Source of the DNA: Squalus acanthias
Taxonomy: Eukaryota
Reading direction: 5' to 3'
Assembly (NCBI GenBank): GCA_030390025.1
Contig: CM059448.1
Location: forward strand, 17,174,001-17,238,000
DNA: 64,000 bases
The translations under genes were made by a program, and so were the position numbers. A model generated the notes under the pieces. The model was not told the DNA's origin and made no database searches. It was given only the letters and a program-made list of their open reading frames with translations. Below, one piece after another: positions 20,884-51,925 of this stretch. Position 1 is the stretch's first letter. Every line of letters begins with the position of its first letter.

Positions 20884-21019
20884 AAAGCAAAATACTGCAG
20901 ATGCTGGAAATCCTGAAATAAAAACAGAAAATGCTGGGAAACATTCAGCAGGTCCGGCATCAACTGTGGTGAGAGAAAGAGAGTTACTGTTTCAGGTCGA
21001 TGACCTTTCATCAGAACTG
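20884..21019 (-). mobile_element. Short PLE hammerhead+tail insertion in an ACACA intron
   Basis: Reverse complement of the 39455-39588 unit. Core CTGATGA...GAAA intact at 20982-21018; degenerate flanking repeat aatagaagacca/aacagaatacaa. Confidence 0.8.
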
Positions 21020-23610
21020 GAACAGAATACAAGTGGGGCAGGAGAAGGGGACTCGCACGACAAACTAAACTAAGAAATCTGCTGGCAGATTAAATCTGGG
21101 GATTCTGAGGAATTGCTTTCTCTGTCGAGGAAGGGCACAATAACAGTTCCCTGGGATCACAGTCTCCCAAGTTACAGCACAAGGAGCTCCCAAAGGGCAA
21201 AAGTATAATTACGATAAAACGCAGAGTTGATTTTTATGAAGTTTTGTACTTCTCAAGGCAAATGATGTTAGTCCTTGGGAATGGAACATTTGTCACATTT
21301 TGCATCATAAGCCCTTCTATAGCACAGGTTTAAAGATCCCTCTACCTCGTGCTTAAGCTTCAGAAGGTCCGTTTCTATTGCACTAGTCTGGACTTTTCCA
21401 CTTTGCACATCAGCCATTCTTGTGGGGAAATGTGTTCAATTTTCCAGCTTTACCATCCTTCCCAAAAATAAATCAATCAAAATTATACAATTTTTTTTTT
21501 ATTTTTTAAATGCCATAACCCAGTGGTGTGCAGGAGTGCTGACACATTCAGGATTGAAGGTGCTGAATTATATGGTGTGATTAGTGGGCATCTTTTCTCA
21601 TTGGGAACTACATAGACAAGTGTATACAATCTGCTCCTCTTAATTCTATGTTGATTAAGTCAAATTATCTGATCGTTCAATTTTTTTAGCACTAAATTCC
21701 CACTGTGCTATGTTATTTATGTTGTTTATTGGATCATTTGAATTTTTAGTGCAAATAACAACTTCAAATCATCAGCATTACACTCTATGGTGTAGTTTAA
21801 TAGACGGTGAAAGTAAAAGTTCAAAAATAGATGAATAAGTAGTTATGCTTTGCATTTTTCTATAATCTAACCAGACTGTCACAACCCGATCCACTACTTA
21901 GTTAGATGTTTGATATCGTTTTATATTACTTGGGTGTTCCTTTTAAAGGCTAACCGAGTTTGCCCTGTGCTCTTTCCAACACAATTGGAAATTCCTCGGA
22001 ATAATGAAACTTTTTACCATTAGCAATTCCGTGTTCCTTTTAGTTGTGTACAGTAGCGCTGTAAGTGTGTCACTGGAGCCCTCGATGTGATGTCTTTGAG
22101 CGTCAGCGTGTGCTGTTGTTTACATGTAAATCTTGTGCTTGCAAGCAAGTAAACACCAGGGTTTTAACTTGACATTGAAGACATGAAAAGCCTTCCCAAA
22201 AAATCAAAAATTGCAAAGTGGGACTATTTCAGTAAAAATAGAACTAGTTCCAATTAAAATGAACAGAAAAGATCAAAGCAGCCGAGTCAAATCCAGAGTG
22301 CTCTCTTATCCTCCCAGTTGAGACCTGCTCCAGTGGCTCCTCACGGAGCTAATAACTGACGAGGTGCGTGACAGAAGCAAAATAAGAAAATAAAGTCCCA
22401 AACTTTGCCAGAACAAAAAAAAAAAGACTGTCCCCAACCTTGGTCATAACATTGCTTCAAACATCCGTCCACGCACAAAGCAAAAATACTCTGGAGCCAT
22501 GCCAACTTCCCCAGGTAGAATACACATTATATGCAGGCGTTTCGCTAACTAATACTTACAACAATCAACTCTGATTATATTAAGCTACAATTAATCTGCA
22601 CCCTGGAATGTGTTGATAGGAACTGGCGTGCTGTTACTTAATTAAAACCAAAAGGATTAAAAATATTAATGGTATTAAATATTCTCCTAAACCACAAGCG
22701 CTGGAATTCTTGGGTAAATCTGCTCTTCTTATGTGAGCTTAAAATGAATAGTCATTTACATCCTTTGAATCTTCAACCTCACATGCCAAGTATTACTTTG
22801 TTTGAGCTTATGACGGGCTTGCACCATGAATATGCATTTTAGTATTAGGAGCTGTCAAAAAAGGCATCGGGAAGCATTTTCATGCAGCACGTTTGGTTTA
22901 TGTGGCCAAAATTAAAGAAGAAGCAACCAAAGAAACTGATCTAATAAGCAGCCTCCAGATTTAGGCTGGCGGCCAGATAGGTAGTCACAACACCAAACTG
23001 TGGCCCACAGGTAAAAGGGGCAGGAGAACAGTGCCACCCCTCGTGATCTGGGTCACAGCAGAGCCCTGGGAACAAAACCTTGCATTTGGAGAATAATTTG
23101 GGTGGGGCGGTTTGGGAGGAACAAATAGGGGTACATGAGGAATGATTTTCTATTTTTTAAATATTTTCTCTCTTTGTTCCCTCAGTCCTGGAGGCACTGA
23201 TTGTCACTGTCACTGTGTTGAGATCCCACAGGTGCCAGCAATCTCGTACGACCTTGTTCAAATGGCCATTTGTCACGTGTGAATCCAGACAATAATTGTT
23301 GAAAGGCTATTGAACAATAGAGGGCATTACAGCCAAGTCTGTTACTGTTCTCGCCTAACGTCCACGGATCATTGGATGGTAATCAGGAATAGGAATCCTA
23401 GCTGATTTTTGTTTCTTTACCCCCCCCCCCCGGCCCCAATCGCAAATCTTGGCCACTTTTGGTGCTCCAACTGTCACCTGACCTGAGGTACGCTAATTAG
23501 CATAGGCCAGGGATTGAAGTTGAGCCGTTCTGTTCTGTGTCGTTTAGTGCCGCACTAAAAGGTCCCGTTGCCCACTAAGCCATTTGAAAGCTGTAAGTTT
23601 ATTTTTAAAT

Positions 23611-24340
23611 GGCCCAGATTTTGCCTTATAAATAACGGTGCTAACTGTTATTAAAGAGTAAATCGGACAGCAACTTCCCGCATCCGCACATGCGCAGTTA
23701 AACGCGTAAATCAGGAAGTTGCTCTGCTCCTCCAGAAGCTGCACTCCAACCAGTATCTTGCTGAGAGACTCTGCATTGAAACACATGGAACCATGTGAAG
23801 TTGCTGTACTTGCGTGATAGATACCCACTAAACTCACCCGAAAAAGTTAGGGCTTATCCATTTCAGTCTAAGTGAATTTTAACGGCGTGATAAGTCTTAA
23901 TTACTTCCGAACAACCTCTCTGGCAATGGAAATTAATTTTTACAAGTGTGATGTCTCATTCCTTCAGATTTTTATTGTTGGAGATTTAAAAAGATAAAAA
24001 AAATAATTACATTTGTTTTCCTTTTTCTTTCCGTCTCTTTTATCTCTCTCTCAATCCAATCTTTTTTTTTTCACTTTCTGTACATGATTTGGCATTGAAT
24101 TAAATATTCTAACTTGCACTTCCTGGTTCAATGCCCAGTAAGAATTCTTCAATCTGATTGGTTAAGGAGACACACCTTTGCTTGCCCTGTTCACAGATAT
24201 CCTGTAGAGGGTGTCGCGCTGAAATGTATTTCTAATCACCACAACTTCCAGTGTAAAAGCCCACAGAAAGTCTGTGGGCCAGTGTAAGTGTAATGAACGG
24301 CTGGCACTGTTCATTTGCCACTGATCGCAAAATCCAGGCC
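23611..24340. mobile_element. Non-autonomous PIF/Harbinger-type DNA element
   Basis: TIR ggcccagattttgc/gcaaaatccaggcc; 3-bp TSD aat/aat; related in reverse orientation to 47017-47765. Confidence 0.7.
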
Positions 24341-24685
24341 AATGTGTTGAAAACACTCCAATCTGCCAAATACATAAAGATACCTCAGATACCACCTCGG
24401 ATACCTGCAGAGTGGGGCCATCAGTGATTACAGTTCTACTGCTTTGTGTGCCTCTGCGAGTGGCACTGGGGCCAATGACAAAGGTGCACGGAGTATGCAT
24501 GCACAGAGCGCTGCTTCGTGGACAGCTAAGTATTAATGTTAGGGGAGCACAGGTGTTGAGCGCCAGCATTCTATTACCATTGAAATCATCCTGAACTTAC
24601 TTTCCCAGTAGACTGCCTGAGCACTTCTGAAATGCAGCGTTGCACCAGGCGGGAGTTCTAGCTCACCTGCTGTGAAATCAAACCA

Positions 24686-24852
24686 AAAATAAAAGGAGAA
24701 CCTGCGAATGCTGGAAATCTGAAATAAAAACCAAAAATGCTGGAAATGCACAGCAAGTCGGTCAGTATCTGAGGAGTTGAGAAAGGTCACGATGTTTCAG
24801 GTGTATGCCCTTCATTAGAACAGATGCTGTATTTCCAGCATTTTCTGTTGAC
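24686..24852 (-). mobile_element. Short degenerate PLE hammerhead+tail insertion with a partial inverted tail
   Basis: Decayed core CTAATGA..GAAACATC. Inverted aaaatgctggaaat/atttccagcatttt. Perfect 14-bp TSD gtgaaatcaaacca (24672-24685 and 24853-24866). Confidence 0.7.
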
Positions 24853-26074
24853 GTGAAATCAAACCAGTTCGCCTACTCCACCGGAAGGGATCTGGCATCT
24901 CTTTCTTTCGTTCACTCAGGAATCAGATTGCTGACAAGTTATATTGCCACCTTTTTGAGTTGACGCGCATCCTGAAACCACCTTGAATTGAAGTGGCAGT
25001 CTCAAAGACATTTTTTTGGCAAACTCTGTGCTGGAGCTGAATCAGAGAGCGTGGCTGCTGCAGCGGCAGCGTCTGCCCCCGATACTCAAATGCTGACTTT
25101 GCATACAGACCGTCCCCTAATGAAATGAACCTACCTGCAGAACTCCCCAAGAAGACGACCTTGCCACTTTCACCAGGTCTCTAAGGAGCTTGTAGCAAAA
25201 TGGGTTCACTCAGGGTATTTAATTTTCTTCCAATTTTGTTTAAAGAGTCACCCATATGACCAACTCAGCACCAAAGAAAGCAGAAAGTCCTGTGAAGTGC
25301 AAGGTTCTGTCCTGAGGTTGTAAAAGGCTCAGCGGTTTTAGTTTGTAGTGTCTCTGTGATAGATGAGGGCCAAATCAAAAAAGTACGCTCTTTACCAAAA
25401 GGCATCCTCTAACGTTTGACTTGAAGCCCTGTATACAAGCTTCTGCAGTTTTCTAGTTGCCATCGGGAAGAACGTCCTCATAAAACCAATAGAAAAAGAG
25501 GTTATTTGGTACACTGACAAACACCTTGTACCTGTTCGACTCCAGGGCTACAGACAGCTCATCTCATGCAGCTGGAGGCTTGTGGTAGTTGAGGACCAAG
25601 GCAAGGAGGCAGGAGAGAACCAATCCATCAATTAACTGTTTACTGCAAGAGCCCTACAACTGTACTTCTGTATCACAACAGAGCTACTGTCTTCAAATGC
25701 CTGTGAAATGTTAAAATATAGGTACAACTATACAATTCATTTCACTGTGTTGTATCACTATCACTGTGATAAGACAGTATATATGGACATAAGAAAGGCA
25801 ACCTATCTGTTAGATGCTGCAGCCTGTGCACCAGCCTCCCCAGTTGCTGTTAATGCCAATTCCCATGGGAAGCAAAAAATCTGGAAAAATGTCAGGAAAA
25901 AATGGGAAATTCCTCTCTAAGGCAAGCTATCTACAAGAGATCATTGCTACCTAAGATACATTGTTAGATGTACTTAAATAACAACCCCTCCCCAATATGC
26001 CTCATTGTTCTTAAGAACATATCTTTCATAAACCTTTTTCAGCACAAAGGGTTATTTTTTAATCCTAATTTCTC

Positions 26075-26497
26075 CGGACGTCTCAAAGCGCTTTACAGCC
26101 AATGCAGTACTTTTGGAGCGTAGTCACTTGTAATGTGGGATACGTGGCAGCCAATTTGCGCACAGCAAGCTTCCACAAACAGCAATGTGATAATGACCAG
26201 ATAATCTGTTTTTGTTATGTTGATTGAGGGATAAATATTGGCCAGGACACCGGGGATAACTCCTGCTCCTCTTCGAAATAGTGGCCATGGGATCTTTTAC
26301 ATTCACCTGAGAGAGCAGACGGGGCCTCGGTTTAACGTTTCGTCCAAAAGACGGCACCTCCGACAGTGCCGCACTCCCTCAGCACTGCACTGGAGTGTCA
26401 GCCTAGATTTATGTGCTCAAGTCCCTGGAGTGGGACTGTGAACCCACAACCTTCTGACTCAGAGGCGAGTGTGCTACCCACTGAGCCACAGCTGACG
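26075..26497 (-). mobile_element. Deu-domain SINE, near full length
   Basis: Reverse complement of 51112-51550. Older copies or fragments lie at ~2380-2730(-), 3790-3940(+), 11320-12160(-), 27140-27200(+), 30135-30330(+), 45575-46130(-), 49820-50110(+) and 63680-63865(-). Confidence 0.85.
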
Positions 26498-27549
26498 CTT
26501 GCTGGGATAGGGTTTTGTGGCTGCAGGCAGCCCTCTGCTACTTGTCTAAGTGGTCATTCTTCATGTGAGGCTAGATGGTGAGTGCCAACAGGCTATTTAA
26601 CCATGGAGGCACCACAGCCATGACCAATGCTGTCATCAACCAATGTCCACATACATGCATTTTCCTAGCAGTTGTCACTGGATACCAATGAGGAATGGGA
26701 ACAGTCCTCCACCAGGGGTGTTGATGCCAATTAAAACGTCTAAATGCTGTTCTGGCTAAGATTAGCTGACTGAGCACAGACCGAGAATGGAGCCTGGGAC
26801 TTTGTGGTTTGTATGGCTTCGTACTCCAGGGTCATTGGGCAACCAGCTGATTAACTGTTGAATAATGTTCACTTTTTTATTTTAAGCCATATAGTTTAAT
26901 ACATTAAAATAGTCCATACAGGAAAGTAACTCAAACTTGTTATTGCACAAAGAAGAAGTTAAACACATTGGCTTTCTTTAGAGAGATGTCTACTATACAG
27001 TAATTGCTAGTGTGTCCGGAGCTACAAACCACATTGAGATAGATTCCTAGATCATGATGCAAAAAACAGTCATTTAACACATTTATAATTCCATTTTAAA
27101 AAAGTCAGGAAAATGTTTTACTTTTCAATTTGTGCGTGTCTGCGCTCTCGGGTGAATGTAAAAGATCCCACGGCACTATTTCGAAGAAGAGCAGGGGAAG
27201 TTACAGCCTCCTTTTATGGGAAGATTTTAAGCTGCCTCACATATATGATCATGTCTTCTTTCAGCCACAGGACGTGGCCTCACAGTTCACGAGCACTAGA
27301 ATAAGCCTTAAGAAGACCTTAATTTTATCTAAGCTTCTTTAAATCTAAATAAATAGGTTAACTTCCAGAATTAAACACCGTCTCCGCCAGATCAACTTTC
27401 TGAACTGGATAAAAGCCAGTGGCAACATTAGCAGGCTCCATTCATTATTACTGTCATGAAGTTCCATTTTAACATCTCCAGATTTGCACCTGAAGATTTC
27501 CTTTCACTTTTGGCAGCACATGAGTGCTAACAATGCTCTTCACTTCCAG

Positions 27550-27686
27550 GCCTATCTGTGGGATGACAATAAGGACGTGGTAGACTGGCTGGAGAAACAA
27601 CTGCTGGAGGAGGAAGGAGCTCGTTCAGTCATTGATGAGAACATCAAGTACATCTGCAGAGATTATATTCTCAAACAGATCCGAAG
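27550..27686 (+). CDS. ACACA: ACACA penultimate coding exon, [45 protein letters not shown](S)
   Basis: Matches the ACC1 C-terminal region. Acceptor ttccag|GCC and donor AG|gtgagg (phase 2). Confidence 0.95.
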
Positions 27687-29314
27687 GTGAGGCTCTTTAC
27701 AAAACTGCCCCCCTTTTTTAAATTACTGGTATTGCAGTTTGTAAATCTCTGATAAATATATTGAAAGTCTTGTGTATAGTGCACATCACACTTTAAATAG
27801 TAATGAGTAGCACAAAAAAAATTAGTAACAGGAAAAAATTCTGTCATGCTTTGATTGGTTCCTAGAAATTTTGAGCCAATCAAAAAGCAATTTGCTGCTA
27901 TCTGCTGTCTCTCTGCACCTTTCGCAAACGTTTACTGTATTCTCCAACTCGGCATGAGCAATGCCACAGGAGATCCACTAGTTTGGGGGGGGACGGGCGA
28001 ATTGGGAAATGAGCAATTCCTCACTTCTCCTTCTTGCGTTCACCAAACTATTTCGCTTCCCTCGGCTGGTTCTCGAGCAGCAATGGCAGAGGTCTGGGAG
28101 TTGGTTGCCAATCCATTCTCTCCGGTGGGGAACAGTGTGGTACAGTAAGGGGAACAAAGAGAAAAGAGGAGGAGGCAAATAAGCCAAATCCTGGCAGCAG
28201 AGCCATGGAATCTGGGACTGTAGGGCTTTGTTTGCTGTTGTATTGTTAATGCATTTCTGAGATGTACTTAGTACCTGAAAGCAGCCAATGGTGCAGCTAC
28301 CGAGCTAAAGGGGTGAGGATGAGAAGGACATGTCTTCCACCCCTCCCCCCTCAGCTCCAAATCCTAGAATTTCTCTCCCCCCCCCCCCCCCCCCCCTGCC
28401 CCCTCCGATGTTCCACCGGTTCTATATACAGGTACGTGGGACCTCTGCATCCTCTTATCTACATAAACAAGTGGAATCCAGCTTGTGTGCTTTTCCTGAC
28501 TTTCCCTTGTACAAGCTGTAAATATGTTCAGCATTTTGTGTGTGCTACAAAATGTGCATTCAGCAGGAGCCCTGTGCAGCCAGTCCAAAGATAAACACAC
28601 TGTCCATCAACTGTTTCCCCAAACTAAGCGATTTATCCAGCACGTCTCCAAGTGATTCTAGGAAGGCCCTGCAATTTGCATATTTTTTCTTTCCCCGGGG
28701 CCTCGCACAGCAAGGTATTAATTTTCAGTTAGGCTATGCATGTGTGTATTAACTATCACACATATATGGCTACATGCACAGCTGAAGGGTTCTGTGCAGG
28801 CAGGTGCAGTAAGCAGACTGACTTGGCTCAGACCGATTTAAATGCTGTACAACAATCTGAAGATATTCTTACACTGATGGAGCTATTTTAAAAATCCATT
28901 TTGTAATCAGAAATTGCACTCTCGAACTCCGAGAAGCACCTTCTGTAATGTAGTCCTTAGCTGGTAGATCTTTCTGGAGTTAGTCCCTCCGTCATCTAAT
29001 GCGCTTTGTATAAGTTCACTGTTTGTCTTTTTTTAAACAAATAAAAAAACATCTGGATCTGTCCAATTTTTTTTTTTCTCTGCCGATTGTTTTCTCTGTG
29101 TCATGGCCTGAAGGCATTGACTCCTCACTGGGGTACAGTTCCATGGGTGCCAGACACCCTCTGCCACCCAAATAGCCACTGTTCATGTGAGTCTGGATGG
29201 TAAATGTCAGCAGGTTACTCAACAGCAGGGTTAGGGGAGAGTGAGTGGAGTGGGGGTGCAACACAGCTGCACCCCATCCCTTTCTCACCCAACATCTACG
29301 CAAGTGCACCCGTA

Positions 29315-29705
29315 GGGGTACGGCAGCATAGTGGTTATGTTACTGGACTAGTAATCCAGAGGCCTGGACTAATGATCCGGAGACGTGAGTTCAAATCCCA
29401 CCACGGCAGCTGGGGAATTTAAATTCAGTTCATTAAATACATCTGGAATTTAAAAAGCTAGCATCAGTAATGGTGACCATGAAACTCCCAGATTGTCATA
29501 AAAACCCAGCTGGTTCAATAATGTCCTTTTTTTAGGGAACAAAACCACTCCGACAAAGTCAACACTGTGGGAGCACCTTCACCACAAGGACTGCAGCAGT
29601 TCAAGAAGGCGGCTCACCACCACCTTCTCCAGGGCACTTAGCGATGGGCATTAAATGCTGGCCTTGCCAGTGACGCCCACATCCCATGAACGAGTAAATA
29701 AAAAA
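29315..29705 (+). mobile_element. tRNA-derived SINE with a LINE-type tail (third family)
   Basis: GGCAGCATAGTGG A box and GAGTTCAAATCC B box; tail aaggcggctcaccaccaccttctc...gcccacatccc ending A-rich. Confidence 0.7.
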
Positions 29706-29874
29706 ACACCCTGCCAGGAGGTTGTTCAGTTATGAGGAGTGGAAATGCTGCCTAATTATTTTTTTCTCTTCCCCTTCCCAACCTGTAGAAATCTCATGGC
29801 TTCAGGTCAATCAAGGCCAAGCAAAGCTCCTGCTGAGATCACCACTTGCGGCCACCCTAGCAGATAATCTAGAT

Positions 29875-30117
29875 CAGAGGTTCCCAAACTTTACTTATTG
29901 CGTACCTCCTTCCAGATCTACCAGCTGCCTGCGTACCCCTCCCAGCAGACAGGGTTAACAGTTTAATCCTTTAATGCCCAAGCATTGTACAAATTATAAT
30001 ACACGGATACAACTTAAAATCCACCATTAGACAGTTTCTCCGCATACCCCCCCCCCCCCCCCCCGAGATGCCTCGCTTACCCCCAGGGGTGCACGCACCG
30101 CAGTTTGGGAACCCCTG
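29875..30117. mobile_element. hAT-Charlie-like MITE
   Basis: TIR cagaggttcccaaact/agtttgggaacccctg; TSD atctagat/atctcgct (NTCTAGAN-type target). Confidence 0.8.
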
Positions 30118-31024
30118 ATCTCGCTTGACACTTCCATGTAGTACTGGGGGAGTGCTGCTTTGTCAGAGGTGCTGTCGTTCAGATGAAACATTAAACCGAG
30201 ACTCCGCCTGCTTGTTTGAGTAGATGTAAGAGATCTCGTGGCACTGTGTGAAGAAGAGCAAAGAGTTCTCCCAGTGGCCTGGTTCGTGTTCCTCCCTCAA
30301 CCAACCGCACCAAAACAGATTATCTGGCTATGGAAATTTCAGACAGATCACGAGAGATTGGGCAATAGAAAATCAGAGAAAAAGCTAGGGACACAGTCTG
30401 GAGGAATCACTGTAGCACAAGTTGGAAAAAGCGCATTGATTCTAGTCCTCGCAGACCCTCGCTGCACCCCCCCCCCCCCATGTACAGACCTCATCCCAAT
30501 CTGGGGAGGGTGGTGCATCACCGCATTTGAGAAGCGCTTTAAAGTTAAACTAAAATCTGACATCAAATTGTGAAAGCAGCCAGCAGTTGTAGAGATGATA
30601 CTGGCTGCATTATGAACTTAGCCCGATGGTCAAATACAGCAGATGTTAAATAGTGGTATTGAAGGAGGCAGTTCCTGGCTTTTCTGGATCCTCAATATGA
30701 TGATAATGGCCCTTTAAGAGCAACCAGCTCTGGTGTAACACACAGTCTGTTTACAGATGCTTCAAACTTAGTAGTCCACAGTTGCTCCATAGGATTTCTG
30801 GGTTCCAAATGTGCTTGGATTTAAATTATATCACCCAGTACTTTTGCTAGTTTTGTCTATTAGATAATCGTACATTTTATGTCCCTATTTTTTAATCTAT
30901 TGTAAGTAAATAAGTCTTTTTTTCCCCCCATAATTATAATGGTCTAATTTGGTAACGCTGCCAGTCGGAAGGTGATGACTAAGATTACAGAACGCAATGG
31001 TTTGATTGTACCTTGTCTTTGCAG

Positions 31025-31151
31025 TCTGGTGCAGGCCAATCCTGAAGTTGCCATGGATTCGATTGTTCACATGACCCAACACATCTCACCCACTCAGAGA
31101 GCTGAAATTGTGCGCATTCTGTCAACAATGGATGCCCCTGCTTCAACATAG
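31025..31151 (+). CDS. ACACA: ACACA terminal coding exon, (S)[41 protein letters not shown]
   Basis: Absent from the ORF track and read by hand. Acceptor tttgcag|T, TAG at 31149-31151. The C-terminus is ACC1-like ([25 protein letters not shown]) rather than ACC2-like. Confidence 0.95.
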
Positions 31152-31691: not shown

Positions 31692-31697
31692 AATAAA
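31692..31697 (+). terminator. Proximal ACACA polyadenylation signal candidate (AATAAA)
   Basis: AATAAA about 540 nt after the stop codon, with an ATTAAA just downstream. Confidence 0.4.
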
Positions 31698-37900: not shown

Positions 37901-38209
37901 TGGACAATCTGCACTGTGGAGTGGGTATCTTTAATCATCAAAGAATTCAGACTCGAATCTTCATTGAAAGCCCACCTGTTTAGTTCCCAAAGGTGGCTGA
38001 TTTCACTGTATCCCCTGTAGACATACAGTTAATTACAATTACAAACCCAGTCATTGCAAATGAACAGAACCCTGTTCAGGCTGACAAAAAAAATTACATT
38101 AAAAAAAACATTTTTTTCCCCCCCTTGGTGGACTTAGTTTATTTATTGTTTTTCTACACTGCTTGTCAACCACAACACTTACACTTTCTTCCAAACAGAT
38201 TAATCCTCA

Positions 38210-39588
38210 CCTTCACATGGTCCATCTCCGACTCTTCCCTTCCCTTCCTCGACTTCTCCATCTCCATCTCTGGGGATAGGTTATTGACTAACATTCACTA
38301 CAAGCCCACCGACTCCCACAGCTACCTGGACTACACTTCCTCCCACCCCGCCTCCTGTAAGGACTCTATTCCATTCTCCCAGTTTCTCCGTCTCCGCCGC
38401 ATCTGCTCTGATGATGCCACCTTCCATACCAGTGCTTCCGACATGTCTTCCTTTTTCCTCAACCGAGGATTCCCCTCTACCGTGGTCGACACGGCCCTCG
38501 ACCGTGTCCGTTCTATCTCCCGCACATCTGCCCTCACCCCTGCCCCTCCCTCCCGGAACCACGATAGGGTTCCCCTTGTCCTCACCTTTCACCCCACCAG
38601 CCTCCACATTCAACGGATCATCCTCCGCCATTTCCGCCACCTCCAGCGTGATCCCACCACCAAACACATCTTCCCCTCACCTCCCCTTTCAGCATTCCGC
38701 AGGGACCGCTCCCTCCGCGACACCCTAGTCCACTCCTCTACCACCCCCAGCACCCCTTCCCCTTCGCCCGGCACCTTCCCGTGCACGCGCAGGAGATGCA
38801 ACACATGCCCTTATACCTCCCCTCTTCCCACTGTCCAGGGCCCCAAACACCCCTTCCAGGTGAAACAGCGATTTACTTGTACTTCCTGCAATTTAGTATA
38901 CTGTATTCGCTGCTCACGATGTGGACTCCTCTACATTGGGGAGACCAAACGCAGATTGGGTGACCGCTTTGCGGAACACCTCCGTTCAGTCCGTAAGGGG
39001 GACCCCGAGCTCCCGGTGGCCTGTCACTTTAATTCACCGCTTCACTCCCACTCTGACCTCACCGTCCTCGGCCTATTACACTGTTCCACGGAAGCGCAGC
39101 GTAAGCTCGAGGAACAGCACCTCATCTTTCGTTTAGGCACGCTACAGCCCTCTGGACTCAATATCGAGTTCAACAATTTTAGATCATAACCTCAGCTCCA
39201 ATCACATTTATATTTTATTTTATCCACCCTTTTATTTGTCCCCCCCACCTTTTTTTTCCTCCTAGAAGCTGGCAGCTGTCCTTCATTCTGCCAGTGGATT
39301 TCACACTTCATTCAGCCTTAATCTGTCACATTAACACCACCTCTAGCCTTGCATATCTCTTAATGTCTCTTCATCTTCCCCTTTGTTCCTTTATCCCCTC
39401 CCCCTTTTCCCAGCTTTACCCTGGCCTTAAATCTATTTGATTTCCAGCTCTTCCCAGTTCTGATGAAAGGTCATCGACCTGAAACGTCAACTCTCTTTCT
39501 CTCTCTACGGATGCTGCCTGGCCTGCTGAGTTTTTCCAGCGTTTTCTGTTGTTATTTCGGATTTCCAGCATCTGCAGTATTTTGCTAT
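38210..39588 (+). mobile_element. Penelope-like retroelement, 5'-truncated, with RT C-terminus, GIY-YIG endonuclease and pLTR/tail
   Basis: Open ORF to 39189 with LPFLD, HYKPTDSHSYLDY, CxxxRCxTC and NLVYCIRCSRCGLLYIGETKRRLGDRFAEH...GLN. Perfect 14-bp TSD cagattaatcctca at 38196-38209 and 39589-39602. Confidence 0.93.
39456..39492 (+). ncRNA. Minimal type I hammerhead ribozyme in the Penelope pLTR
   Basis: agtt-CTGATGA-a-aggtc-atc-gacct-GAAA-C-GTC-aact. Stem I agtt/aact, 5-bp stem II, palindromic ACGT stem III; predicted cut after 39488. Confidence 0.85.
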
Positions 39589-40930
39589 CAGATTAATCCT
39601 CAAGTCTGGATGTTTTCCAGTCTGGTTTGTTTTCTGTGGATTTAATTAAATTAATTACCGCATTTATGTTGATACTGGGCACAGTCATAAAGCTGCTTTA
39701 TTGTTCCTGTTTGTTGGCCTTCACAGTCAGTTTGATAGCATCAAAAAGCAAATTACAAACCATTTTGTACCGAGGTTGTCACACTGGCTTTATGTTAAAT
39801 AATACTCGGAAATGGCTGGAACTCACAGGAATGAAAGAATACATACCAGAGAAAACCTTGAGGTGCACATGATCCATTAATTAGGCCACTTTATTATCTG
39901 CTTATTTTGATCATTTCTGCCAAAAGACTAATTTGAAGACAAATACATTTTCCATCAGTGGACCTCGGAGTGAATTTACAGAACAAGCTTCGTATCAGAG
40001 TAAAAGACAGTAGGATGCTAGCACCTTGAACGTTGTAAAATGTCCCAACGCGCTTCACAGGAGCACGTTCAGACAAACGTTGACATCGAGCCACAGAAGG
40101 ATATATTAGAACGGGTGGTTAAAAGCTTCGTCAAAGAGGTAGGTTTTAATGCATGCCTTCAAGGAGGAGAGGTTTAGGGAGGGAATTCCAGAACCTAGGG
40201 CCTAGATGGCGGCCGCCAATGGTGGGGCGAAGGAAGTGGGGATGTACAAGAGGCCAGAGTTGGATTAACGCAGAGTTCTCAGAGGGTTGTAGGACTGGAA
40301 GAGGTTACAGAGATAGGGAGGTGCGAGGACACGGAGGGTGTTGAACATGAGGATGAGAAAATCGGGCCTTTGGTGGACCAGGGCCAATAAAGGTCAGTAA
40401 GCACAGGGGTGATGGATGAATAGAACTTGGTATAAATTAGGATACGGGCATCCAAAGGAGGCGATATTGGATGGGTGACTAAAAGCTTGGTCAAAGAGGT
40501 GGGTTTAAGGAGGATCGCAAAGGGGGAGAGCCTGAGTTCAGGGTAGGAATTCCAAAAGCATGGGGCCTAGGCAGCCGAAGGTATGGCTGTCAATGGTGAG
40601 ATGAAGGTTGGGGGGTGGGGGGGAGAGGGATAATGCACCAGAGGCCTGTGATTCACAGGGGGTCCAACGTGTCAACAGGGATCTCGGGTTCGTGTCACGC
40701 TACAGAACGTGACTCGACATCGTTGTCTGTTTTTCCAGTTTAAAAAAAAAGTTAAAAGCTTAACTGCAGACGGCAACATTTGACACGTTGGACCCTCTGT
40801 GACCCACCTCATTGTCTTAGCTGTACTCTGATGTGTCCTTGATGTAATGCCTCCCTAACAGATTATATCTCTGCAGACAAATTGTTCTCTGTGTATATAT
40901 ACTGTGTAATCGATTCCCTCACTGTACCTG

Positions 40931-41758: not shown

Positions 41759-41921
41759 CAATGTTCCATGTAAGCTGTGCTTTATTCTGCGCGGCCTGTT
41801 CCTTTTAAAGCGCGGTCCCTTTAAATTTCTGCGCATGCGCGGTATTCACGATGTAAAAGCCGGTGAGCGGCCTGCCCGGGACCTTTGAGATTACTGGCCG
41901 CGCACCTTAGGGGGAGCATTG
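41759..41921. mobile_element. hAT-type MITE related to 4036-4145
   Basis: TIR caatgttcc/ggagcattg; TSD ggaagggt/ggaagggg; inserted in L2. Confidence 0.75.
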
Positions 41922-42059
41922 GGAAGGGGGATGGGTAGGCAGCAGATGCAGTTGAATGGATGGTCTCAATCTTATTGACAAACGAGGTACATGAGCTCCT
42001 CACACTTGTTAATTCTTCTTAACAACATTTGTATTGTATGTAAAAGATATAGCTGTACT

Positions 42060-42891
42060 TCTCTTCTTCTTAGGCAGTCCCTCGGAACCGAGGATGACTT
42101 GCTTCCACATTAAAAATGAGTTCTCAGGTGACTGATGAGTCCAATGCGGGACCTACAGTCTCTGTCACAGGTGGGGCAGACGATGGTTGAAGGGGACGGG
42201 TGGGTGGGGTGCTTGGGTTGACGTGCGCTCCTTGCGCTGCCTGCGATTGGCTTCCGCTTGCTCCCGGCGAAGAGACTCGAGGTGTTCGGCGCCTTCCCGG
42301 ATGCTTCTCCTCCACTTTGTGCGGTCTTGGGCCAGGGATTCCCAGGTGTCGGTGGGGATGTTACACTTTTTCAAGGAGGCTTTGAGGGTGTCCTTGAAGC
42401 GTTTCCTCTGCCCACCTGGGGCTCTCTTGCCGTGCCGGAGCTCCGAGTAGAGCGCTTGTTTTGGGAGTCTCGTATCGGGCATGCGGACGATGTGACCCGT
42501 CCATCGGAGCTGATCGAGCATGGTCGAAGCTTCGATGCTGGGGATGTTGGACTGAGCGAGAACACTGACGTTGGTGCGCCTATCCTGCCAATGGATTTGC
42601 AGGATCTTGCGGAGGCAGCGTTGGTGGTACCTCTCCAGTGCTTTGAGGAGCCTGCTGTACATGGTCCATGTCTCTGAGGCATTCAGCAGGGCGGGTATCA
42701 CTGCTGCTCTGTAGACCATGAGCTTAGTGCCGGTCTTCAAACACTTGAGGTCCTGGTCTTCAAACACTCTCTTCCTCAGGCGACCGAAGGCTGCACTGGC
42801 ACACTGAAGGCGGTGTTGGACTTCGTCGTCGACGTCTGCCCTTGTTGACAGTCGGCTCCCGAGGTATGGAAAGTGGTCCACGTTGTATTAT
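42060..42891 (-). mobile_element. RTE/BovB-clade LINE, 5'-truncated
   Basis: ORF FPYLGS...ASAAFGRL...TKLMVYRAAVIPALL..SETWT..QLRWTGHIVRM..RLPK. (AAG)n tail; 12-bp TSD tatagctgtact (42048-42059 and 42892-42903). Confidence 0.92.
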
Positions 42892-44317
42892 TATAGCTGT
42901 ACTATATACACAATCACCACAGGAAAATCAGAAGATTGATCATTCAGCAGTAAGTTCAGTAGGAAATCTTGAGCTGTAATCACAATGCCAACTGATTTAA
43001 AATTTTTATATGACTGTTCCTTTATAAAAAATATTGTTTTTTTTTTCCATTATCAGGAACGGTAAGGGGATAAATGTTACATGTAACATCCGGGGTTAGC
43101 TTCAAGCACCCTGTGGTCAGATATTGCACAGCACTCCATGGCCTGCTTCCAAAATTATGCCTTAGCTTTAAATTTAGAGGACAATGTTTTTTTTAACACC
43201 AGGCTCATCATAGCTTCACGGAGATTACATTTGTGGTAGATCTATGCTAACTTGTGTCTCCTGGGAACTGTGTTGAGACTATCTCAAATAATTTACATTG
43301 GTCCCTTTAGAGGCAGCAGAAATGCTGTTTAGCCCATTGGTTGGGTTGCATTCTAATCCAAGTCCTGACGGTTTAAGTGTTCATTGCAACATTCAATCTC
43401 ATTATCAGAACACCTCAAACCACCTTTTTGAGGCAGACACTTCTCCCACCTCCTTCCCAGCAGGCCCATTTACCATTCCCCATCCGTTTGACAAGCTTTA
43501 CTATTTCCCGCTAAGAAATCTATTCTATTTTATTTCCAATTGTCTCATCTCAAAGCTGTGACCTGAAATTAAGGGGATCAGAACTTCAGGAGGAGTGATG
43601 AAGAAAACGGGGAGCGATAAATATCAGGTTGGGGAGGACACTGTGGTCGCACTCTGTCAATGGATAGCCGGTTAATATTTTTTTAATGCTTTTTTCTTTC
43701 CCAACTTTCTCCTTTCTACAGTACAGTTCCATGGAAGCCACTCACCCTCCAGAACCTCAGCTCTGTGGCCATTCGCACGTGAGGCTTGAAAAAATGAATG
43801 TTGGCAGGTTAACCAACCACAGGGGGCATCCCAGTTGAGTCTGATCCTGTCCTCCTCCAACATTCACAAATGCAGCAGGGGTTGCCCGACAGCAATCAGG
43901 ACCAAGAACCCTGATTGGTTTTCCCTTCTCTAATCCAGCAGCACTACGGCTAGTTGTAGTATTTCCACCAATTCCACAGCTGAGACCAGCTAACTCATAC
44001 AGACTATGGTTCAAACCTGGAACCATCCTGGTCTGTAGGTTCAGATACTCATTGAGCCATTAGGTGTGTAATTGCATGCAGCAGGCCTATAGATGTAGTG
44101 AAGTCACAGACTTAAAAGTATCTCGAGAATAGTGACCTGGTTGACTAGGCAGCTGTTAACTCCCAACAGATTTCAATACATTCCACTATTGATTTGGATA
44201 ACCAAAACTTTGAGATGGGATTGCTCAAGGTAAACTTACAAACTGCTTTCTGGCCTCCCTCACTTACTGCAATCCAGATAAAAAGTAAACTCTACAACAC
44301 AGAACATCACTACAGAA

Positions 44318-44850
44318 GTGCCTGAGGGCAGCGTCCTTGGCCCAACCATCTTCAACTGATTAATCAATGACTTTCCCTCTATCGTAAAGACAGGAGTGGG
44401 GCTGTTCACTGACAATTCAACAGTGTTCAGTTCCACTCACAACCTATGATAATGAACCAGCCCATGGCAGCCTACAGCAGGCCCTGGATGACATCCAGAT
44501 TTGGACCACATGTAGCAGGTAACATTTGCACCACATAAGTGCCAGGCAATGACGATCTCCAACCAGAAAAGGCCTAACCATCTACTTTTGATCTTCACGG
44601 GCCTCACCATAGCTCAAGTTCCCCCACCATCAACATCCTAGGGGTCACCACTAACCAGAAGCTTAACTGGACCAGCCACAGTGACACCATGACGACAAGA
44701 GCAGGGCAGAGGCTCATCTCCAACCCCTCAATGTCTATCCACCATCTAAAAGGCTCAAGCCAGGAGTGTAAATGGAATCCTCACCAGTCATCTGGATGGT
44801 TGTGGCCGCGACATGAAGCTTGACACCATCCGTAACAAAGCAATCTGCTT
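44318..44850 (+). mobile_element. Degenerate CR1-superfamily RT fragment
   Basis: VPEGSVLGPTIFN..INDFP...GVGLFTD, a decayed GVPQGSVLGP/FADD region. Confidence 0.7.
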
Positions 44851-44854
44851 GAGC

Positions 44855-45280
44855 GTCTTCCCGGTTCCAATTCCTAGTCCCCCAATGCCTCAAATTTAAA
44901 AGCGTATTCTTGTCTTCAAACCCCTCCCTTATTTCTGTAACCTCCTGCAGTGCTACAGCCCCCTCCTTTACAAACTCTAAACTCTTCTCACTCCGGCCTC
45001 TTGTGCATCCCCATTTCCTTCGTCCTGCCATTGATAGCAGCATCTTCAGCCACCTCGGTCCCAGTCTCTGGAATTCCCTCATTAAACACCACTGACTCTT
45101 CACCTCCCTCTCCTGTAATAACTTAACAATACAATTTCTTTAAGACCCTCTTTAAAACCCATCTCTTCTAGTCACCCCTCAATCTCTCCTTGCGTTTGGT
45201 GTATGTTTTCCTCAAGGCTCTGTGACATTGCTAGGACATTTTTCTACATTTAAAGAGATATATAATTGCAAGATTTTGTT
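44855..45280 (+). mobile_element. L2 LINE 3' fragment
   Basis: IFSHLGPSLWNSL remnant and L2-type tail gacattttctacatttaaag..atataattgcaag. Confidence 0.7.
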
Positions 45281-45624
45281 AATAACAATATGGAGTCAGC
45301 CATGAGCACTTGTACTGCTTCATCTATAACAATAAAAGGTTTTCCAAGATAGGGATTTATGTGTTAATGTGTTAATTTACTCACAAGTGGACACCTAGTG
45401 CGCAGAGTGACTCGAACTGCGATTGACGAGGGAACGTAGGGTGCGCCAGGCAGACCCTGAAATTGCTTCGGGCGCCCCGTTGTGTTTAATGGTTGGAAGT
45501 TCTTGCATGCTTTGTAGCTAATGTACAACACAACGTTCGAAACAAAGGAATAACAACCTAGAACAAAGAAAGGATTTGCATTAAGAAGCATCTTTCATGT
45601 CCTCAGGATATCCCAAAGAACTTC

Positions 45625-45716
45625 TGATGAAAGGTCATCGACCTGAAACGTTAACTCTGCTTCTCTCTTCACAGATGCTGCCTGACCTGCTGAGTATCTC
45701 CAGCATTTTCTGTTTT
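45625..45716 (+). mobile_element. 92-bp PLE hammerhead+tail insertion inside a Deu-SINE
   Basis: CTGATGAAAGGTCATCGACCTGAAACGTT core. Flanked by a perfect 16-bp direct repeat tatcccaaagaacttc (45609-45624 and 45717-45732). Confidence 0.85.
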
Positions 45717-47016
45717 TATCCCAAAGAACTTCACAGGTTAGGAATTCTTTCTGAAGGGCATTCACTGTTCCTTTGCAGACAAACACAGCAACCCAATTCC
45801 AATTGCACACAACAAGCAGATCAAATGGCAAATGAATCTGTTTTTGGCGGTGATGATTGGGGGGGATAAATGTTGGCTGGGCCACTGGGAGAATTCACCT
45901 GCTCTTTTTTGAAAAGTGCTACAGGATCTTTTACATCCACCTGAACAGGCCGATGAGACCTTGGTTTTAAAGTCTCATCCAATCGGCAGCACTTTTAACA
46001 ATGCAGTACGCTCTCAGTGCTGACAGTAATGTGTCAGCTTAGATTATGTGCTCCAGTCCTGAAGTGGGGCTTGAACCCATGATCTTATAAACTCAGAGAG
46101 ACGCATGCAACCACTGGGCCACGCTGACACTCAACTTGGCTGAACTGACTGCAGAAACAGGTATTAAAAATATGATCGAAGATGCCCAAGCTTCTAAATC
46201 TTATTTGATTCTTTAGCTCACTGCTGAAAATGCTTGGCAGGCTTTAACGATCCAAAAGTAACCGGCAGCTATATAATCCACTGCTGAGTCTGCAAGCAAA
46301 TGCTTCAGAAGCTCTCAACCAGGACTTCAGGACCTGACTGATTAAATATTCAGAAATACTAATGCTGCAGCTTTCTGTAGCCCTCAGTCACATATTTGGA
46401 ACATATTCAGCCCTTATAACTCAAGGGTGGATGATCAGCACTCTACCCTTGAGACAAGAAATAGCCAAAGGATTAACACCTGTATTGAGTGCTCCACCCA
46501 CCAGCTCCAATACCCTGAGTCAGGACAGCAATGCGTTCCTTGGTGTGTGCAGATTATTTACAGTTACAGATTCTCCCTTCCCCTTGGCAGAGGTTGCCAA
46601 ACATTATTTGCTGAGTCCCCGCCCTTCGGACTGTCACGTCACATGCGCACTCCCCTCTTTCTAAGAAACAGGGTACATTTTACAAATTAATGCTCCCTGT
46701 GTGGAATCTCATCCAGTGGAGATGAGGGGGTGGGCACATATCATGATTTTACACTCACCCCATGATTGTCTATCCATTACGTTAATGGAGCCGCATTCAT
46801 AACATTTATCCTGTGTGTCTTCTCTAAGTAGTGAGAAAAGTATTTAGACGGTGGCCATTTTGTTTTCTCTCTCTCTTTGGGTCACATATCACGTATTGGC
46901 CGCCAGACCAGTTAGAATGGAGATGGGGAAATGACAGAATCAGGGACAGAAGGGAGAGATAACATTGACAATAAATGGCCTCCAGCAGCAGGTACTATCT
47001 ATCAAATAAAAACAAT

Positions 47017-47765
47017 GGCCCTAATTTGCGGTCAGCGGTGAAGGAAAGGCGTTCGTTGCTGGTCCCGAAGAAAGCTGCCCACAAAGATCTCGCGATCTCT
47101 GTGGCGAGAAGTTTGCCTTTTTCGACATTCAATTGGTTGCAGCACTGTGAATAGGGGATTCCTCCGGCGATGCTGCAGTGACTGTCTAAGCAGCCAATCA
47201 CATTGAAGAATTCGCACAGACAGTAAACTAGGAAATGAGAACCTGCTTTTATCCGGACTTTTTAAAAATGTGAGAGAGTGAAATAAAGATTGAGACTTTC
47301 ACATGGGGATAAGGTAGAAGCTGAAGCTGAACAAACTTTAAAGAAAAAACTTTAAGTTTTAAAAGAATTGTAATTTTTATCACAATGGAGAAATTTGACG
47401 CTCCACAAATATAAAAATGAGTTTTTCAGGGCCAGACGTTTGTTTAGCAGTCACTACGCTGTTAGAACCCCAGTTACACCTATTCCAACAAGGCTTAACA
47501 TTTAATGGGGTATTTAACAGCGATATTACTGCGGAAAAGCCCAAGCTTTCATCAGCTTCGCTGATTTCCCTGATTGCCGGCTATGGGGGTGGGGAGGGGG
47601 GCGGTCCACAACGCAGCCAGTGCTGTAGCAGTGAATGACTGACCGCAACTTCAGGATTTCCGTGTTTTTGATGCGCTAAATCCTGAAGTTGCGGTCAGTT
47701 TCAGAGGGGTAATGATGGTGAACGCTGACAGTTCGCTGTCATTACCCACCACAAATTCCGGGGCC
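47017..47765. mobile_element. Non-autonomous PIF/Harbinger-type DNA element
   Basis: GGCC...GGCC termini with imperfect TIR; aat/aat TSD; internal 22-bp perfect hairpin. Confidence 0.7.
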
Positions 47766-48189
47766 AATGCTTTTATTTAAAGGTACAGTCTAGTTATCTC
47801 TCCTGTAATAAGCTAGCAATACAGTTTCTTGCAATGGCAAGCTAATTTCAGTCTTGTTACAGCTGAAATGCCAACATAAGGAACAAACCTTGCGCTAGGA
47901 CATTGAAAGATCAGCCGATGCTATAAAGCTCATTTAACAAACTTACAGTATTATCTGTACTCTATGAAAACTTATGAGAAAAGTAAACATCTGTGTTCTT
48001 TGGTTTACACAGGAGGGGTAATGAATGATGAAATATTGAGTGCAGGGCATGATGTTCGGATCTGTCACTGTGGTGCTTTTACTACCGGTGAGCCTATTCC
48101 TTGGCTTTTGATCTCCAGGATTGAGTTACCTCCAGTGGTCCAGGGTGTGGGCTGCGAGCATTCGTCGAGCAAAGCAAACACAGATACGT

Positions 48190-48965
48190 GTGAGATATTA
48201 CATTTTGGTAAGAAAAATAAGGAGGTCACATATTACTTGGAAAATAAGAATTTAAATGGGATCTGGGAGTACAAATACACAAACCACTAAAAGTATCGAC
48301 GCAGGTTAATAAGGCCATAACAAATGCAAACCAAGCACTAGGGTTTATTTCTAGAGGGATAGAATTGAAAAGTAGTGAAGTTATGCTAAATTTGTATCGA
48401 ACCTTGGTTAGACCATACTTGGAGTACTGTGCACTGTTCTGGTCGCCACACTATAAAAAGTAGAGGCACTGGAGAGGGTGCAAAAAAGATTTACAAGGAT
48501 GATACCAGATCTGCGAGATTATATCTATCAGGAAAAGATGAACAGGCTGGGATTCTTTTCTCTTGAAAAAGAGAAGGCTGAGGGGTGACCCAATAGAGGC
48601 TTTTAAAATTATGAACTGTTTTGATAGAGTAGATACCGAGAGAGTGTTTACACTTGTGGGGAAGAGCAAAACTAGAGGCCATCAATAGAAGATCGTCACC
48701 AAGAAATCAAATAGGGAATTCAGAAGAAACTTCTTGACCCAGAAAGCGTTGAGGATGTGGAACTCGCTACCACGGGGAGTGGTTGAGCTGAATAGTATAG
48801 ATGCATTTAAGGGGAAGCTGGATAAGCATATGAGGGAGAAGGGAATAGAGGGTTATGCTGATGGATGGGAGGAGACTGGAGTGGAGCATAAACACCGGCA
48901 TGTACTGGTTGGGCCGAATGGCCTGTTTCTGTGCTGCATATTCAATGTAATGTAATTCTATGTAA
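48190..48965 (+). mobile_element. Degenerate CR1 LINE 3' fragment
   Basis: LYRTLVRPYLEYCALFWSPH-like and MWNSLPRGVVE-like remnants; (AATGT)n tail. Confidence 0.85.
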
Positions 48966-51111
48966 TTACAAATAACTCTACCCGGGCTCCGACAACATAA
49001 TCAGACATCTCCTATACTCTGCACATTATTGCTGCGTCCAGCCATTATGTTTTTGCTCTTTCCCTGTATTTTCCTCTTCAGTAAGAGATAAGCGCCTACC
49101 GCCTCTTCCAGCAGCACGCCACCGGTGCTGTGAACCAGCCCGTCCTCCTCGCGGCCCCGATAACATCCTCGTGTCTCCTCTCCCTCCCCGAGTTTGGGAA
49201 CCACTGCCCTGGGTCGTCCACATCATGCATCAATCACCAAGCAAGCAGGCACGCAATCTTTGTGAAAGGCCTCTGGTAACTCTGCTTGAGTTGACAGTTG
49301 GAAAGTGTGAGAGAGCAATCACAATTGCATGCCGTCCAATTTTCTCTCCCTGCCCTCCTGTGATAAGTACCTGGACATCATCTCAAGGTCTCTTCCTGCT
49401 GACTGGCCATGTGGGAAATCACTTAGGTCACAATTACATGTTGAGCATCTGCCTGCAGTTGAAAGTGATACAAACGCCAAACTTTAGCTCTTCAGCATAA
49501 CTCCGGGACAAAATGATCTATATTAAAGCTGAACTTCCCTGAAGTTATTTAGGTTGAAAACCAATAGTGCCTGCTGGGGGTTGTTGAAACAAAATTCGCT
49601 AAACTGACTTGAGCATCATCAGTTTTCATTTCTGTGCTGCTGGGAGCCCAGCTGCCAATCACGTCATCCCTTTAAAACAAGGCTACAAATCACACCTAGT
49701 TTTGTTCCATGGTGTTTTTGAGTGGCTATACAAGCACATGACTTCAGACACAGAAACAGAACTCGCAGAAGGTGGTGCTTTCAAGGCCCTCTCCGGGCCA
49801 GCGCGGTACCGAGGTTGCACTACATTGTTGGCGATGCTGTCTTTTGGATGAGATGCTAAGCCAAGGTCCTATCTGCCTGTTCAGGTGGCATAGTTTGAAG
49901 AAGAGCAGGGAGTTTGTCCCTCAACCACCACCACCACCAAAAAAACAGATTTCCTGCTGATTTATTCATTTGCAGTTTGTGGGCTGTTGCTGTGGGCAAA
50001 TTGGCTGCTACATAACAGCAACTGCACATCTAAAAGTAAGTCGTTGCCTGTAAAGTGCTCTGGGACATCCCGAGGATGTGATAGGTGTTCTGTAAATGCA
50101 AGTTTATTCTTTCTTACAGATTAAGTAAAGAAAATACTGAAAGTTATATTTTGTTCACTTTTTAAATTTGTGTCTTTTTGAAGTGACATTTAATTTTAAT
50201 GCTTAAAAGTGATTATGGTTAAAATAAAATTGTGGAGGAAATATAGCTTTAAAAAACTTAAGGGCAAGGAATGAGAATTTTGAATACCCTTAAATTAATT
50301 TTTCCTTAAAATGAGCTGAAGTTCCAAGTGACTGTTAAACACATTGTTTTTTTTAAAAAAAATCCACTGAAATGATGGAAACATGAAATTGTCCAAGAAA
50401 TACATTTCTAGGCATGTACCGTATCTAAATGTTGTAATAACAGCCTTAGATTTTGATAGATTTGATTGTTATTTAGAGAATGGTCAATAGTCATCCACTA
50501 TTTTCTGAGCAATAATCACGGGTTGTCATTTCAAAGCAACTGTTTAGTGGTTCAAACCCCAGTTTCTCTGCAAAGCCCATCACGCGTCATTCCCTTCGGC
50601 TTGACTTCCTCTATCAATTTACTGCTTTTATTGCAAAAATATCAAAAATAAATTGCAGTAATCCAAACAATTTCTGATAAACCAAAATTAAGTCAAAATA
50701 CGGAATGATTTTCCAGACTACAATCAATCATTTAGAGATTATGATGAAACTTGCCATCATTTGGAAAACTGACACCAAAATCCGTTGTTTAGTTAACACC
50801 CTCGGGTTGTTTTTGTTCTTGAAACGTGGAAGTGGGAAGTGTGCTCTGGTACAAATACAATTCTGTTCAGATGGCTAACAGATTATAAAGGTAGAAGTGT
50901 GATTTTTACACTACTTTACGGATACTGGGTGTGGTTGACTTATGTCACGATATAAATTTTGTAAAATTTCCTACATTACAACAGTGACTACACTTCAAAA
51001 GTACTTCAGTAGCTGTAAAGTGCTTTGGGATGTCCTGAGGTCGTGAAAGGTGCTATAGAAATGCAAGTCTTTCTTTTATGATCACGTCAACACCATGTCT
51101 TCTCTCCATAG

Positions 51112-51550
51112 TGTCAGCTGTGGCTCAGTGGGTAGCACACTCGCCTCTCAGTCAGAAGGTTGTGGGTTCAGGTCCCACTCCAGGGACTTGAGCACAAAAA
51201 TCTAGGCTGACACTCCAGTGCAGTGCTGAGGGAGTGCGGTGCTGTCTTTCGGATGAGACGTTAAACCGAGGCCCTGTCTGCTCTCTCAGGTGGATGTAAA
51301 AGACCCCATGGCACTATTTTGAAGAAGAGCAGGGGAGTTATCCCCGGTGTCCTGGCCAATATTTATCCTCAACCAACATAACAAAAACAGATTATCTGGT
51401 CATTATCACATTGCTGTTTGTGGGAGCTTGCTGTGTGCAAATTGGCTGCCACATTTCAACAGTGACTATACTCCAAAAGTACTTCATTGGCTGTAAAGTG
51501 CTTTGAGACGTTTGGTGGTCGTGAAAGGCGCTATAGAAATGCAAGTCGTT
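51112..51550 (+). mobile_element. Deu-domain SINE (SacSINE1-like), full length, preceded by an isolated 3' tail at ~50968-51077
   Basis: tRNA-like head TGGCTCAGTGG..GGGTTCAGGTCC; Deu core (ctttcggatgagacgttaaaccgaggccc...tgctgtttgtgggagcttgctgtg); L2-like tail. Confidence 0.85.
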
Positions 51551-51696
51551 CCTTTTTTTTTAGATCGGTTGGCTCAGCACAAACCAAGGATCTTCCTGGG
51601 TGTGTATGACTCAGTATACCAGGTACTGCATTGGTGAGCAACCGAGGGAAGTGAAGAGCCAAACATAGACTGGATTCAACACCAACAAAATTGGTT

Positions 51697-51925
51697 AAAA
51701 ACAGAAAATGTTGGAAATATGCAGCAGCCCAGCCAGTGTCTGTGAAAAGCAAAGGCTGGCAATCATGTTTTGGGTGTGTACCTTTCATCAGAACGGAAGA
51801 GGGTTTATCATGTTTATCACCTATGAATGGTCTACACCCGAAACATCACCTTTTCTCTTTACAGAAGCTGACCAATATTTTCTGGTTTTACTCCAGATTT
51901 CCAGTTTTTCCTTTTTATTTTAAAA
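51697..51925. mobile_element. Head-to-head inverted pair of degenerate PLE pLTR fragments
   Basis: Minus-strand CTGATGAAAGGTACACACCCAAAAC (~51764-51794) and plus-strand CTATGAATGGTCTACACCCGAAAC (~51821-51848), each followed by the shared tail. Confidence 0.6.

Follow-up and report, generated by a model that had tools for sequence, protein, structure and literature searches.

We analyzed a window of 64,000 nucleotides (the whole stretch of DNA under study, 17,174,001 to 17,238,000 of contig CM059448.1 in the Squalus acanthias assembly GCA_030390025.1) containing four short inserts derived from a Penelope-like element (PLE). All four aligned to the hammerhead ribozyme and downstream tail (39456-39589) of a longer PLE copy in the same window, in agreement with a preliminary description of the sequence. 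Positions within the element are given on a scale whose zero is the initial C of the core of the hammerhead, CTGATGA (39460 in the longer copy), and negative values lie on its 5' side. The inserts and their target-site duplications (TSDs) were the following, with identity to the longer copy:

20884-21022, minus strand: insert 1, a single-arm short PLE insertion with hammerhead and full tail, about -6/-8 to +128, 88% identity (alignment)
24672-24685, no strand: insert 2, left TSD, 14 bp (exact match to 24853-24866)
24686-24821, minus strand: insert 2, main arm, -3 to about +130, old, 75% identity (alignment)
24822-24852, plus strand: insert 2, second arm, head-to-head, about +49 to +94, with an internal deletion (arm start read by eye)
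24853-24866, no strand: insert 2, right TSD, 14 bp (exact repeat of the left one)
45609-45624, no strand: insert 3, left TSD, 16 bp, its final TTC overlapping the 5' end of the element (exact repeat)
45622-45719, plus strand: insert 3, single arm, -2 to +95, without tail, 89% identity (alignment)
45717-45732, no strand: insert 3, right TSD, 16 bp (exact repeat of the left one)
51696-51794, minus strand: insert 4, first arm, -3 to +94, old, 70% identity (alignment)
51823-51925, plus strand: insert 4, second arm, head-to-head, about +3 (51823) to +130 (alignment)

Every one of the four inserts had an arm whose 5' end lay between -8 and 0: at -6/-8 in insert 1 (21020-21022), at -3 in the main arm of insert 2 (24821), at -2 to 0 in insert 3 (45622-45624, within the TSD overlap) and at -3 in the first arm of insert 4 (51794, ambiguous as far as -12). 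The perfect TSDs of 14-16 bp previously noted for two inserts were confirmed as those of inserts 2 and 3; no convincing TSD was found for insert 1 (best candidate 8 bp with one mismatch) or insert 4 (longest candidate 7 bp, exact). The two arms of insert 4 were separated by about 28 bp, a spacer that contained a short direct repeat, and the cores of inserts 2 and 4 were both decayed (CTAATGA in insert 2; helix II broken). The four inserts are 5'-truncated insertions of an endonuclease (EN)-bearing PLE, inserts 2 and 4 being head-to-head double arms, and their earlier attribution to the PLE enzyme is supported. Taken alone, they are ordinary transposon debris, stubs of a known element type.

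The longer copy presented the following features:

38196-39602, plus strand: longer 5'-truncated copy of a young PLE family, with the 3' part of the open reading frame (ORF) including GIY-YIG, the 3' pseudo-long terminal repeat (pseudo-LTR), hammerhead and tail
38196-38209 and 39589-39602: TSD of the longer copy, 14 bp
39456-39492, plus strand: minimal type I hammerhead motif (sequence; motif definition from PMC4209133)

The hammerhead consisted of helix I (AGTT, 39456-39459, and AACT, 39489-39492), the core at 39460, helix II (AGGTC/GACCT) and GAAAC-GTC, with the cut predicted after 39488. The minimal motif was not detected in an Rfam search, and in the longer copy it folded no better than shuffled sequences (z -0.74). 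Of 373 motifs sampled, 303 had AGTT/AACT as helix I; the search patterns used had enriched this sample. An intact parent copy was present at another locus (L054), where two 1078-bp repeats, 99.8% identical, flanked a 3199-bp unit as partial-tandem pseudo-LTRs. Its single ORF of 971 amino acids, which starts at an ATG inside the hammerhead core (39463 in the longer copy), contained reverse transcriptase (RT) and C-terminal GIY-YIG domains (RVT_1 E 2.5e-5 and GIY-YIG E 4e-4, each just under the Pfam cut-off) and carried YIDD and VYCIRCSRCGLLYIG motifs. Upstream of the GIY-YIG motif it displayed a C-x4-C-x2-C linker (CTRRRCNTC) of the CX2-5CxxC type between RT and EN, a linker described as common to Neptune and Nematis and absent in Penelope/Poseidon (PMC8557442, in the part covered). 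An initial assignment to Poseidon was dropped because of this linker, which points to Neptune or Nematis instead; judging from the sequence, the parent element likely belongs to the Neptune clade. Four features of EN-bearing (EN+) PLEs were present: an RT plus GIY-YIG ORF, pseudo-LTRs, an optional tail or inverted 5'-truncated arm, and a hammerhead in the pseudo-LTR. In the 3.7-Gb genome, a 26-mer of the core had 10,375 exact matches and a 24-mer of the tail 28,332, about 40% of the latter in short copies (controls, 0).

The 5' ends of the family were examined in a tail-anchored sample comprising 98 of the first 100 matches listed (n = 93 after removal of five segmental duplicates), near-core ends being curated by eye with several natural copies as references. 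One copy ended at +67 to +41, six at +40 to +22, 17 at +21 to +1, 16 at 0 to -7, five at -8 to -100, and 48 extended further. Among copies at risk, 16/69 ended at 0 to -7 vs. 5/53 at -8 to -100 (binomial P = 1.4e-12); breakage per base was 0.0034 at +40 to +22, 0.0094 at +21 to +1, 0.029 at 0 to -7 and 0.0010 at -8 to -100, a fall of about 29-fold past -7. Ends at +25 and +31, and at least two at -102, were interruptions by a second element rather than truncations and were kept in the counts. Instead of the smooth decay without a ribozyme peak named beforehand as evidence to the contrary, the breakpoints of the 93 copies showed a sharp peak at 0 to -7. The sharp 5' edge at the ribozyme is real, with clustering far above chance; the earlier statement that the insertions all break just 5' of the ribozyme stood as regards this clustering but did not extend genome-wide, as the edge was not universal (24/93 copies ended downstream of the core C and 53/93 extended beyond -7). 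Over the whole genome, 8,099 of the 10,375 exact cores matched through -4 and 6,741 through -9, a drop that includes loss by mutation. Older families in an unselected 264-kb stretch showed the same edge, with ends at -2 to -6. Apparent peaks at -29, -80, -104 and -240, obtained as X-drop ends against a single reference, were artefacts of subfamily differences. A second, weaker rise of 5' ends at -102 to -129, near an AT-rich TCTCTTAATG repeat, was partly due to secondary insertions and short-unit junctions.

Copies running into the ORF behaved differently. Of 605 genome matches, 88 independent loci had the tail continuing into the ORF start, and in 38 of these the element continued in the ORF to the limit of the DNA examined; five of the 38 ended before +21, leaving 33 at risk. 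None of the 33 ended at +21 to -7, as compared to 33 of 86 tail-anchored copies (P = 4.6e-6), or at 0 to -7, as compared to 16 of 69 (P = 0.0012); they reached 31 to >1400 bases further. Therefore, the RT passes the ribozyme freely where the template continues, and the ORF-spanning copies did not arise from RNA ending there, barring near-perfect strand transfer restricted to long complementary DNAs (cDNAs).

At the other end of the short copies, two preferred positions appeared:

39553-39589, plus strand: two 3'-end zones, about +92 to +98 and +127 to +137, putative internal RT starts bounding the tail (histogram; analogy with PMC11167929)

In all 14 head-to-head pairs one arm ended at +93 to +98 and the other at +129 to +137 (one 3' end was corrected by eye). 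The arms of two pairs differed as subfamilies do, which argues for two RNA templates. This favours the priming of a separate cDNA at each end of the cut target over fold-back copying of a single cDNA. For the PLE of Anolis, two internal RT starts and extension of both target strands have been reported in vitro (PMC11167929); such inverted structures were earlier ascribed to self-priming on an antisense template (PMC3846280).

We consider it fairly probable that the stubs are run-off products of a linear RNA beginning at helix I and that circular or multimeric RNA served as template for the long copies. The observations behind this reading are the homology to the element end, the TSDs, the two 3'-end zones, the 5' edge, the absence of a clade of short copies and the absence of the edge in ORF-spanning copies. 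The RT would start at +93 to +98 or +127 to +137, only about 100-135 nt from the 5' end of the linear RNA, and would run off that end at -4 to -7, leaving single or paired stubs. Ends at +1 to +21 would be the same products trimmed during joining, because TSDs often overlap the first 2-3 bases of the element; the sharp upstream wall with a downstream tail of shorter ends fits run-off followed by trimming. A head-to-head insert would arise when each end of the cut target primes a cDNA of its own and the 3' ends of the two cDNAs are then joined. For long copies and new pseudo-LTRs the template would have to lack a 5' end at this point; it could be a circular monomer (ribozyme cut plus ligation, as proposed in PMC4209133) or a long multimer, two forms that DNA does not distinguish.

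The edge fell on the base that opens helix I (AGTT, -4 to -1), at this feature:

39453-39458, plus strand: CCCAGT, initiator-like, lying at the edge of the breakpoints (A = -4), which can also be read as a 3' splice acceptor (sequence)

The edge is probably the 5' end of the RNA, with transcription starting at CCCAGT, which we take to resemble an initiator consensus and to have a putative promoter role. In matches with purines at -9/-8, the base preceding AGTT was G in 137, A in 63, T in 58 and C in 235; the excess of C indicates that many ends reach -5 to -7. Several observations weigh against a start at helix I. Assembled contigs cannot show RNA starts, the RNA 5' end being deduced from genomic DNA. 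The ends were spread over -7 to 0 and the 235 matches retained C at -5, giving no single start base; some of the near-core ends were scored by eye, and all tail-anchored copies sampled came from a single chromosome arm. The excess of G before AGTT does not show a cap, and its first reading as a cap signal was withdrawn: about 26 of 100 listed G matches joined an inverted arm that ended at +29 (counted by eye), the background in the same context was itself rich in G (G 2475, A 2262, T 1382, C 2170), and a TSD followed by a lone G and AGTT was found in 0/70 G loci, 40 of which had been picked to exclude helix-I junctions. Finally, in Drosophila Penelope, the sole mapped case, an intron ends at a point corresponding to helix I and transcription starts about 120 nt upstream of that point (PMC2377424, PMC4209133), which differs from a start at helix I.

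In an alternative reading, the edge would be a processing end produced by cleavage or by splicing at the polypyrimidine-CAG acceptor (-3/-2). The sequence could be read as a 3' acceptor in all subfamilies, the Drosophila intron ends at helix I (PMC4209133), and several ends lay at -2. On the other hand, -4 to -7 were retained in many copies, TSDs abutted the junction, distant TSDs were mostly accounted for by inverted arms, and no upstream exon common to the copies was found among 120 junctions, nor was a distant spliced host exon; we regard a processing end as unlikely.

Concerning cleavage by the ribozyme itself, 79 matches broke at +29 vs. 32 at +21, but of 30 inspected +29 matches only 13 were plain ends, the others being helix-I junctions (seven), deletions or mutations (eight) and another family (two). 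After correction, about 34 (52 including helix-I junctions) remained vs. about 30 at +21, and no clear breakpoint peak was found at the cut site. Copies spanned +28/+29 on both sides of the predicted cut, supporting a template intact across it, as had been proposed beforehand. Uncleaved RNA is also the main template in vitro for the Anolis PLE (PMC11167929).

Ten of 120 short copies (L159, L197, L203, L216, L223, L229, L234, L238, L244 and L258) were broken at +26 to +28, the cleavage triplet, by another element. In four of them its far end was found, giving a length of about 650-800 bp, ends beginning GGG and a 3-bp duplication (GTT/ATT). We presume this element to be Harbinger-like, and the cleavage triplet is possibly a hot spot for its insertion.

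Stalling or template switching of the RT when it meets the ribozyme in a long, uninterrupted RNA, one of the two explanations first offered for the short inserts, would account for breakage being high over the whole motif (+21 to -7) and for the recurrent inverted junctions produced by helix I complementarity (7/30 loci at +29). However, none of the 33 ORF-spanning copies stopped there, the peak lay on the far (5') side, past the point where the enzyme would have unwound the structure, and the motif of the longer copy folded no better than shuffles. Stalling at the ribozyme is largely excluded, save for stalling confined to about 130 nt from the start of synthesis, and we hold this explanation to be improbable. 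The other, a self-propagating non-autonomous family of stubs with its own master copies, similar to short interspersed nuclear elements (SINEs) or retrozymes, is the least probable of all despite the fixed ends, the very high copy number and one variant branch common to three short copies (84/84), because the short copies formed no clade of their own: in a tree with 25 short copies and 62 long ones (region +2 to +67, 66 columns) both were intermixed, the short/long label needing 15 changes vs. 15.1 in shuffles, three identical haplotypes in three subfamilies included both kinds, the inserts had a single hammerhead and no tandem units, and tails ran on in ORF sequence to +137. The short copies do not constitute a SINE or retrozyme family of their own, and diagnostic variants did not set them apart.

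Short tandem units were found elsewhere in the genome. Forty-seven of the 88 junction loci were units of about 230-570 bp with an internal deletion that joined the ORF start (+184 to +300) to the pseudo-LTR (about -1 to -400). Most had their own distinct junction; 12 repeated one junction in successive units, some two or three times (counted by eye). Of the short units reaching the hammerhead, 7/17 ended at +21 to -9 (counted by eye), against 0/33 ORF-spanning copies (P = 2e-4). All the short units retained the ORF past +172, although the search pattern demanded only +155; +172 is the minimum RNA for the Anolis enzyme (PMC11167929). About 14 short-unit loci had 5' ends at +98 to +127, just under one full lap, a count biased by the search pattern, and such ends hint at circular templates. 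These units (L261-L290 and L351-L410, e.g., L265/266, L368, L380 and L388) resemble non-LTR retrozymes and fit them better than the four inserts do. Tandem units, which bear on the option of a long multimeric template, were also present (e.g., C4:15716325-15722753). A joint from ORF +270 back to -70 (L054:3257 to 2917) appeared in contigs of all four public runs examined (two studies, other organisms); it matches the short-unit forms, and the RNA status of these runs was guessed, so that it provides no evidence of transcription.

A more specific scheme, possible but on balance doubtful, can be built on the run-off reading. The primary transcript would begin exactly at helix I and give only run-off stubs, in the manner of retroviral strong-stop DNA; a ribozyme pair would excise a unit-length monomer that is circularised; copying of this circle beyond one lap would make every long copy and regenerate the pseudo-LTR; and deleted mini-circles would give the 230-570-bp units. 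If true, the circular-RNA model would gain support from genomic data, and there would be a mechanism by which pseudo-LTRs are regenerated.

Many of these traits have precedents. EN+ PLE insertions have been described with pseudo-LTRs, 5' truncation, an adjacent inverted 5'-truncated copy, a one-ended tail of 30-40 bp, variable TSDs and an ORF with RT and C-terminal GIY-YIG (PMC8557442); a fixed hammerhead edge, or its absence in ORF-spanning copies, is not described in the part of that source covered. Poseidon of Anolis carolinensis (PAc) is similar in that its ORF starts at the hammerhead, its RT begins at two internal sites bounding a tail, uncleaved RNA serves as template and both target strands are extended, but it lacks the C-x4-C-x2-C linker, and the text on it, its figure not being covered, gives no 5' edge in genomic copies (PMC11167929). 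The dispersed metazoan hammerheads share the minimal type I motif, the bulged base before helix II and the palindromic 15.2/16.2 pairs; they are mostly single, were ascribed to truncated PLEs and led to the circular-RNA model, and insertion ends are not mapped in the portion of PMC4209133 covered. Non-LTR retrozymes, derived from PLE ends (bioRxiv 10.64898/2026.07.22.740005), are also hammerhead-bearing and non-coding (PMC7229834) and form tandem units of 170-400 nt, each with a hammerhead, whereas the four inserts consist of arms of 90-140 nt, either single or paired head-to-head. In the literature search (figures and bioRxiv supplements lay outside it) general PLE anatomy was found, and neither the fixed edge nor its absence in ORF-spanning copies was reported.

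The regeneration of pseudo-LTRs has been said to have no obvious mechanism (PMC2377424), and hammerhead cleavage is dispensable in vitro (PMC11167929). Tens of thousands of dead stubs constitute a base-level map of template ends, and the edge in stubs vs. its absence in ORF-spanning copies predicts two kinds of RNA side by side, a linear one starting at helix I and a seamless template that is circular or multimeric. The four stubs are ordinary, but the pattern to which they belong is a real and testable clue to PLE replication.

The window contained several other features. Another repeat was present in three copies of about 430 bp with 93-98% identity (8538-8971, 13263-13692 and 57003-57443), and two fold-back segments of about 150-180 bp, with about 71% identity, lay at 9545-9725 and 60362-60512, unrelated to the hammerhead query. 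At 18287-18745 a segment the size of an exon matched the carboxyl transferase domain (PF01039); a host carboxylase gene probably contains the inserts or lies close to them.

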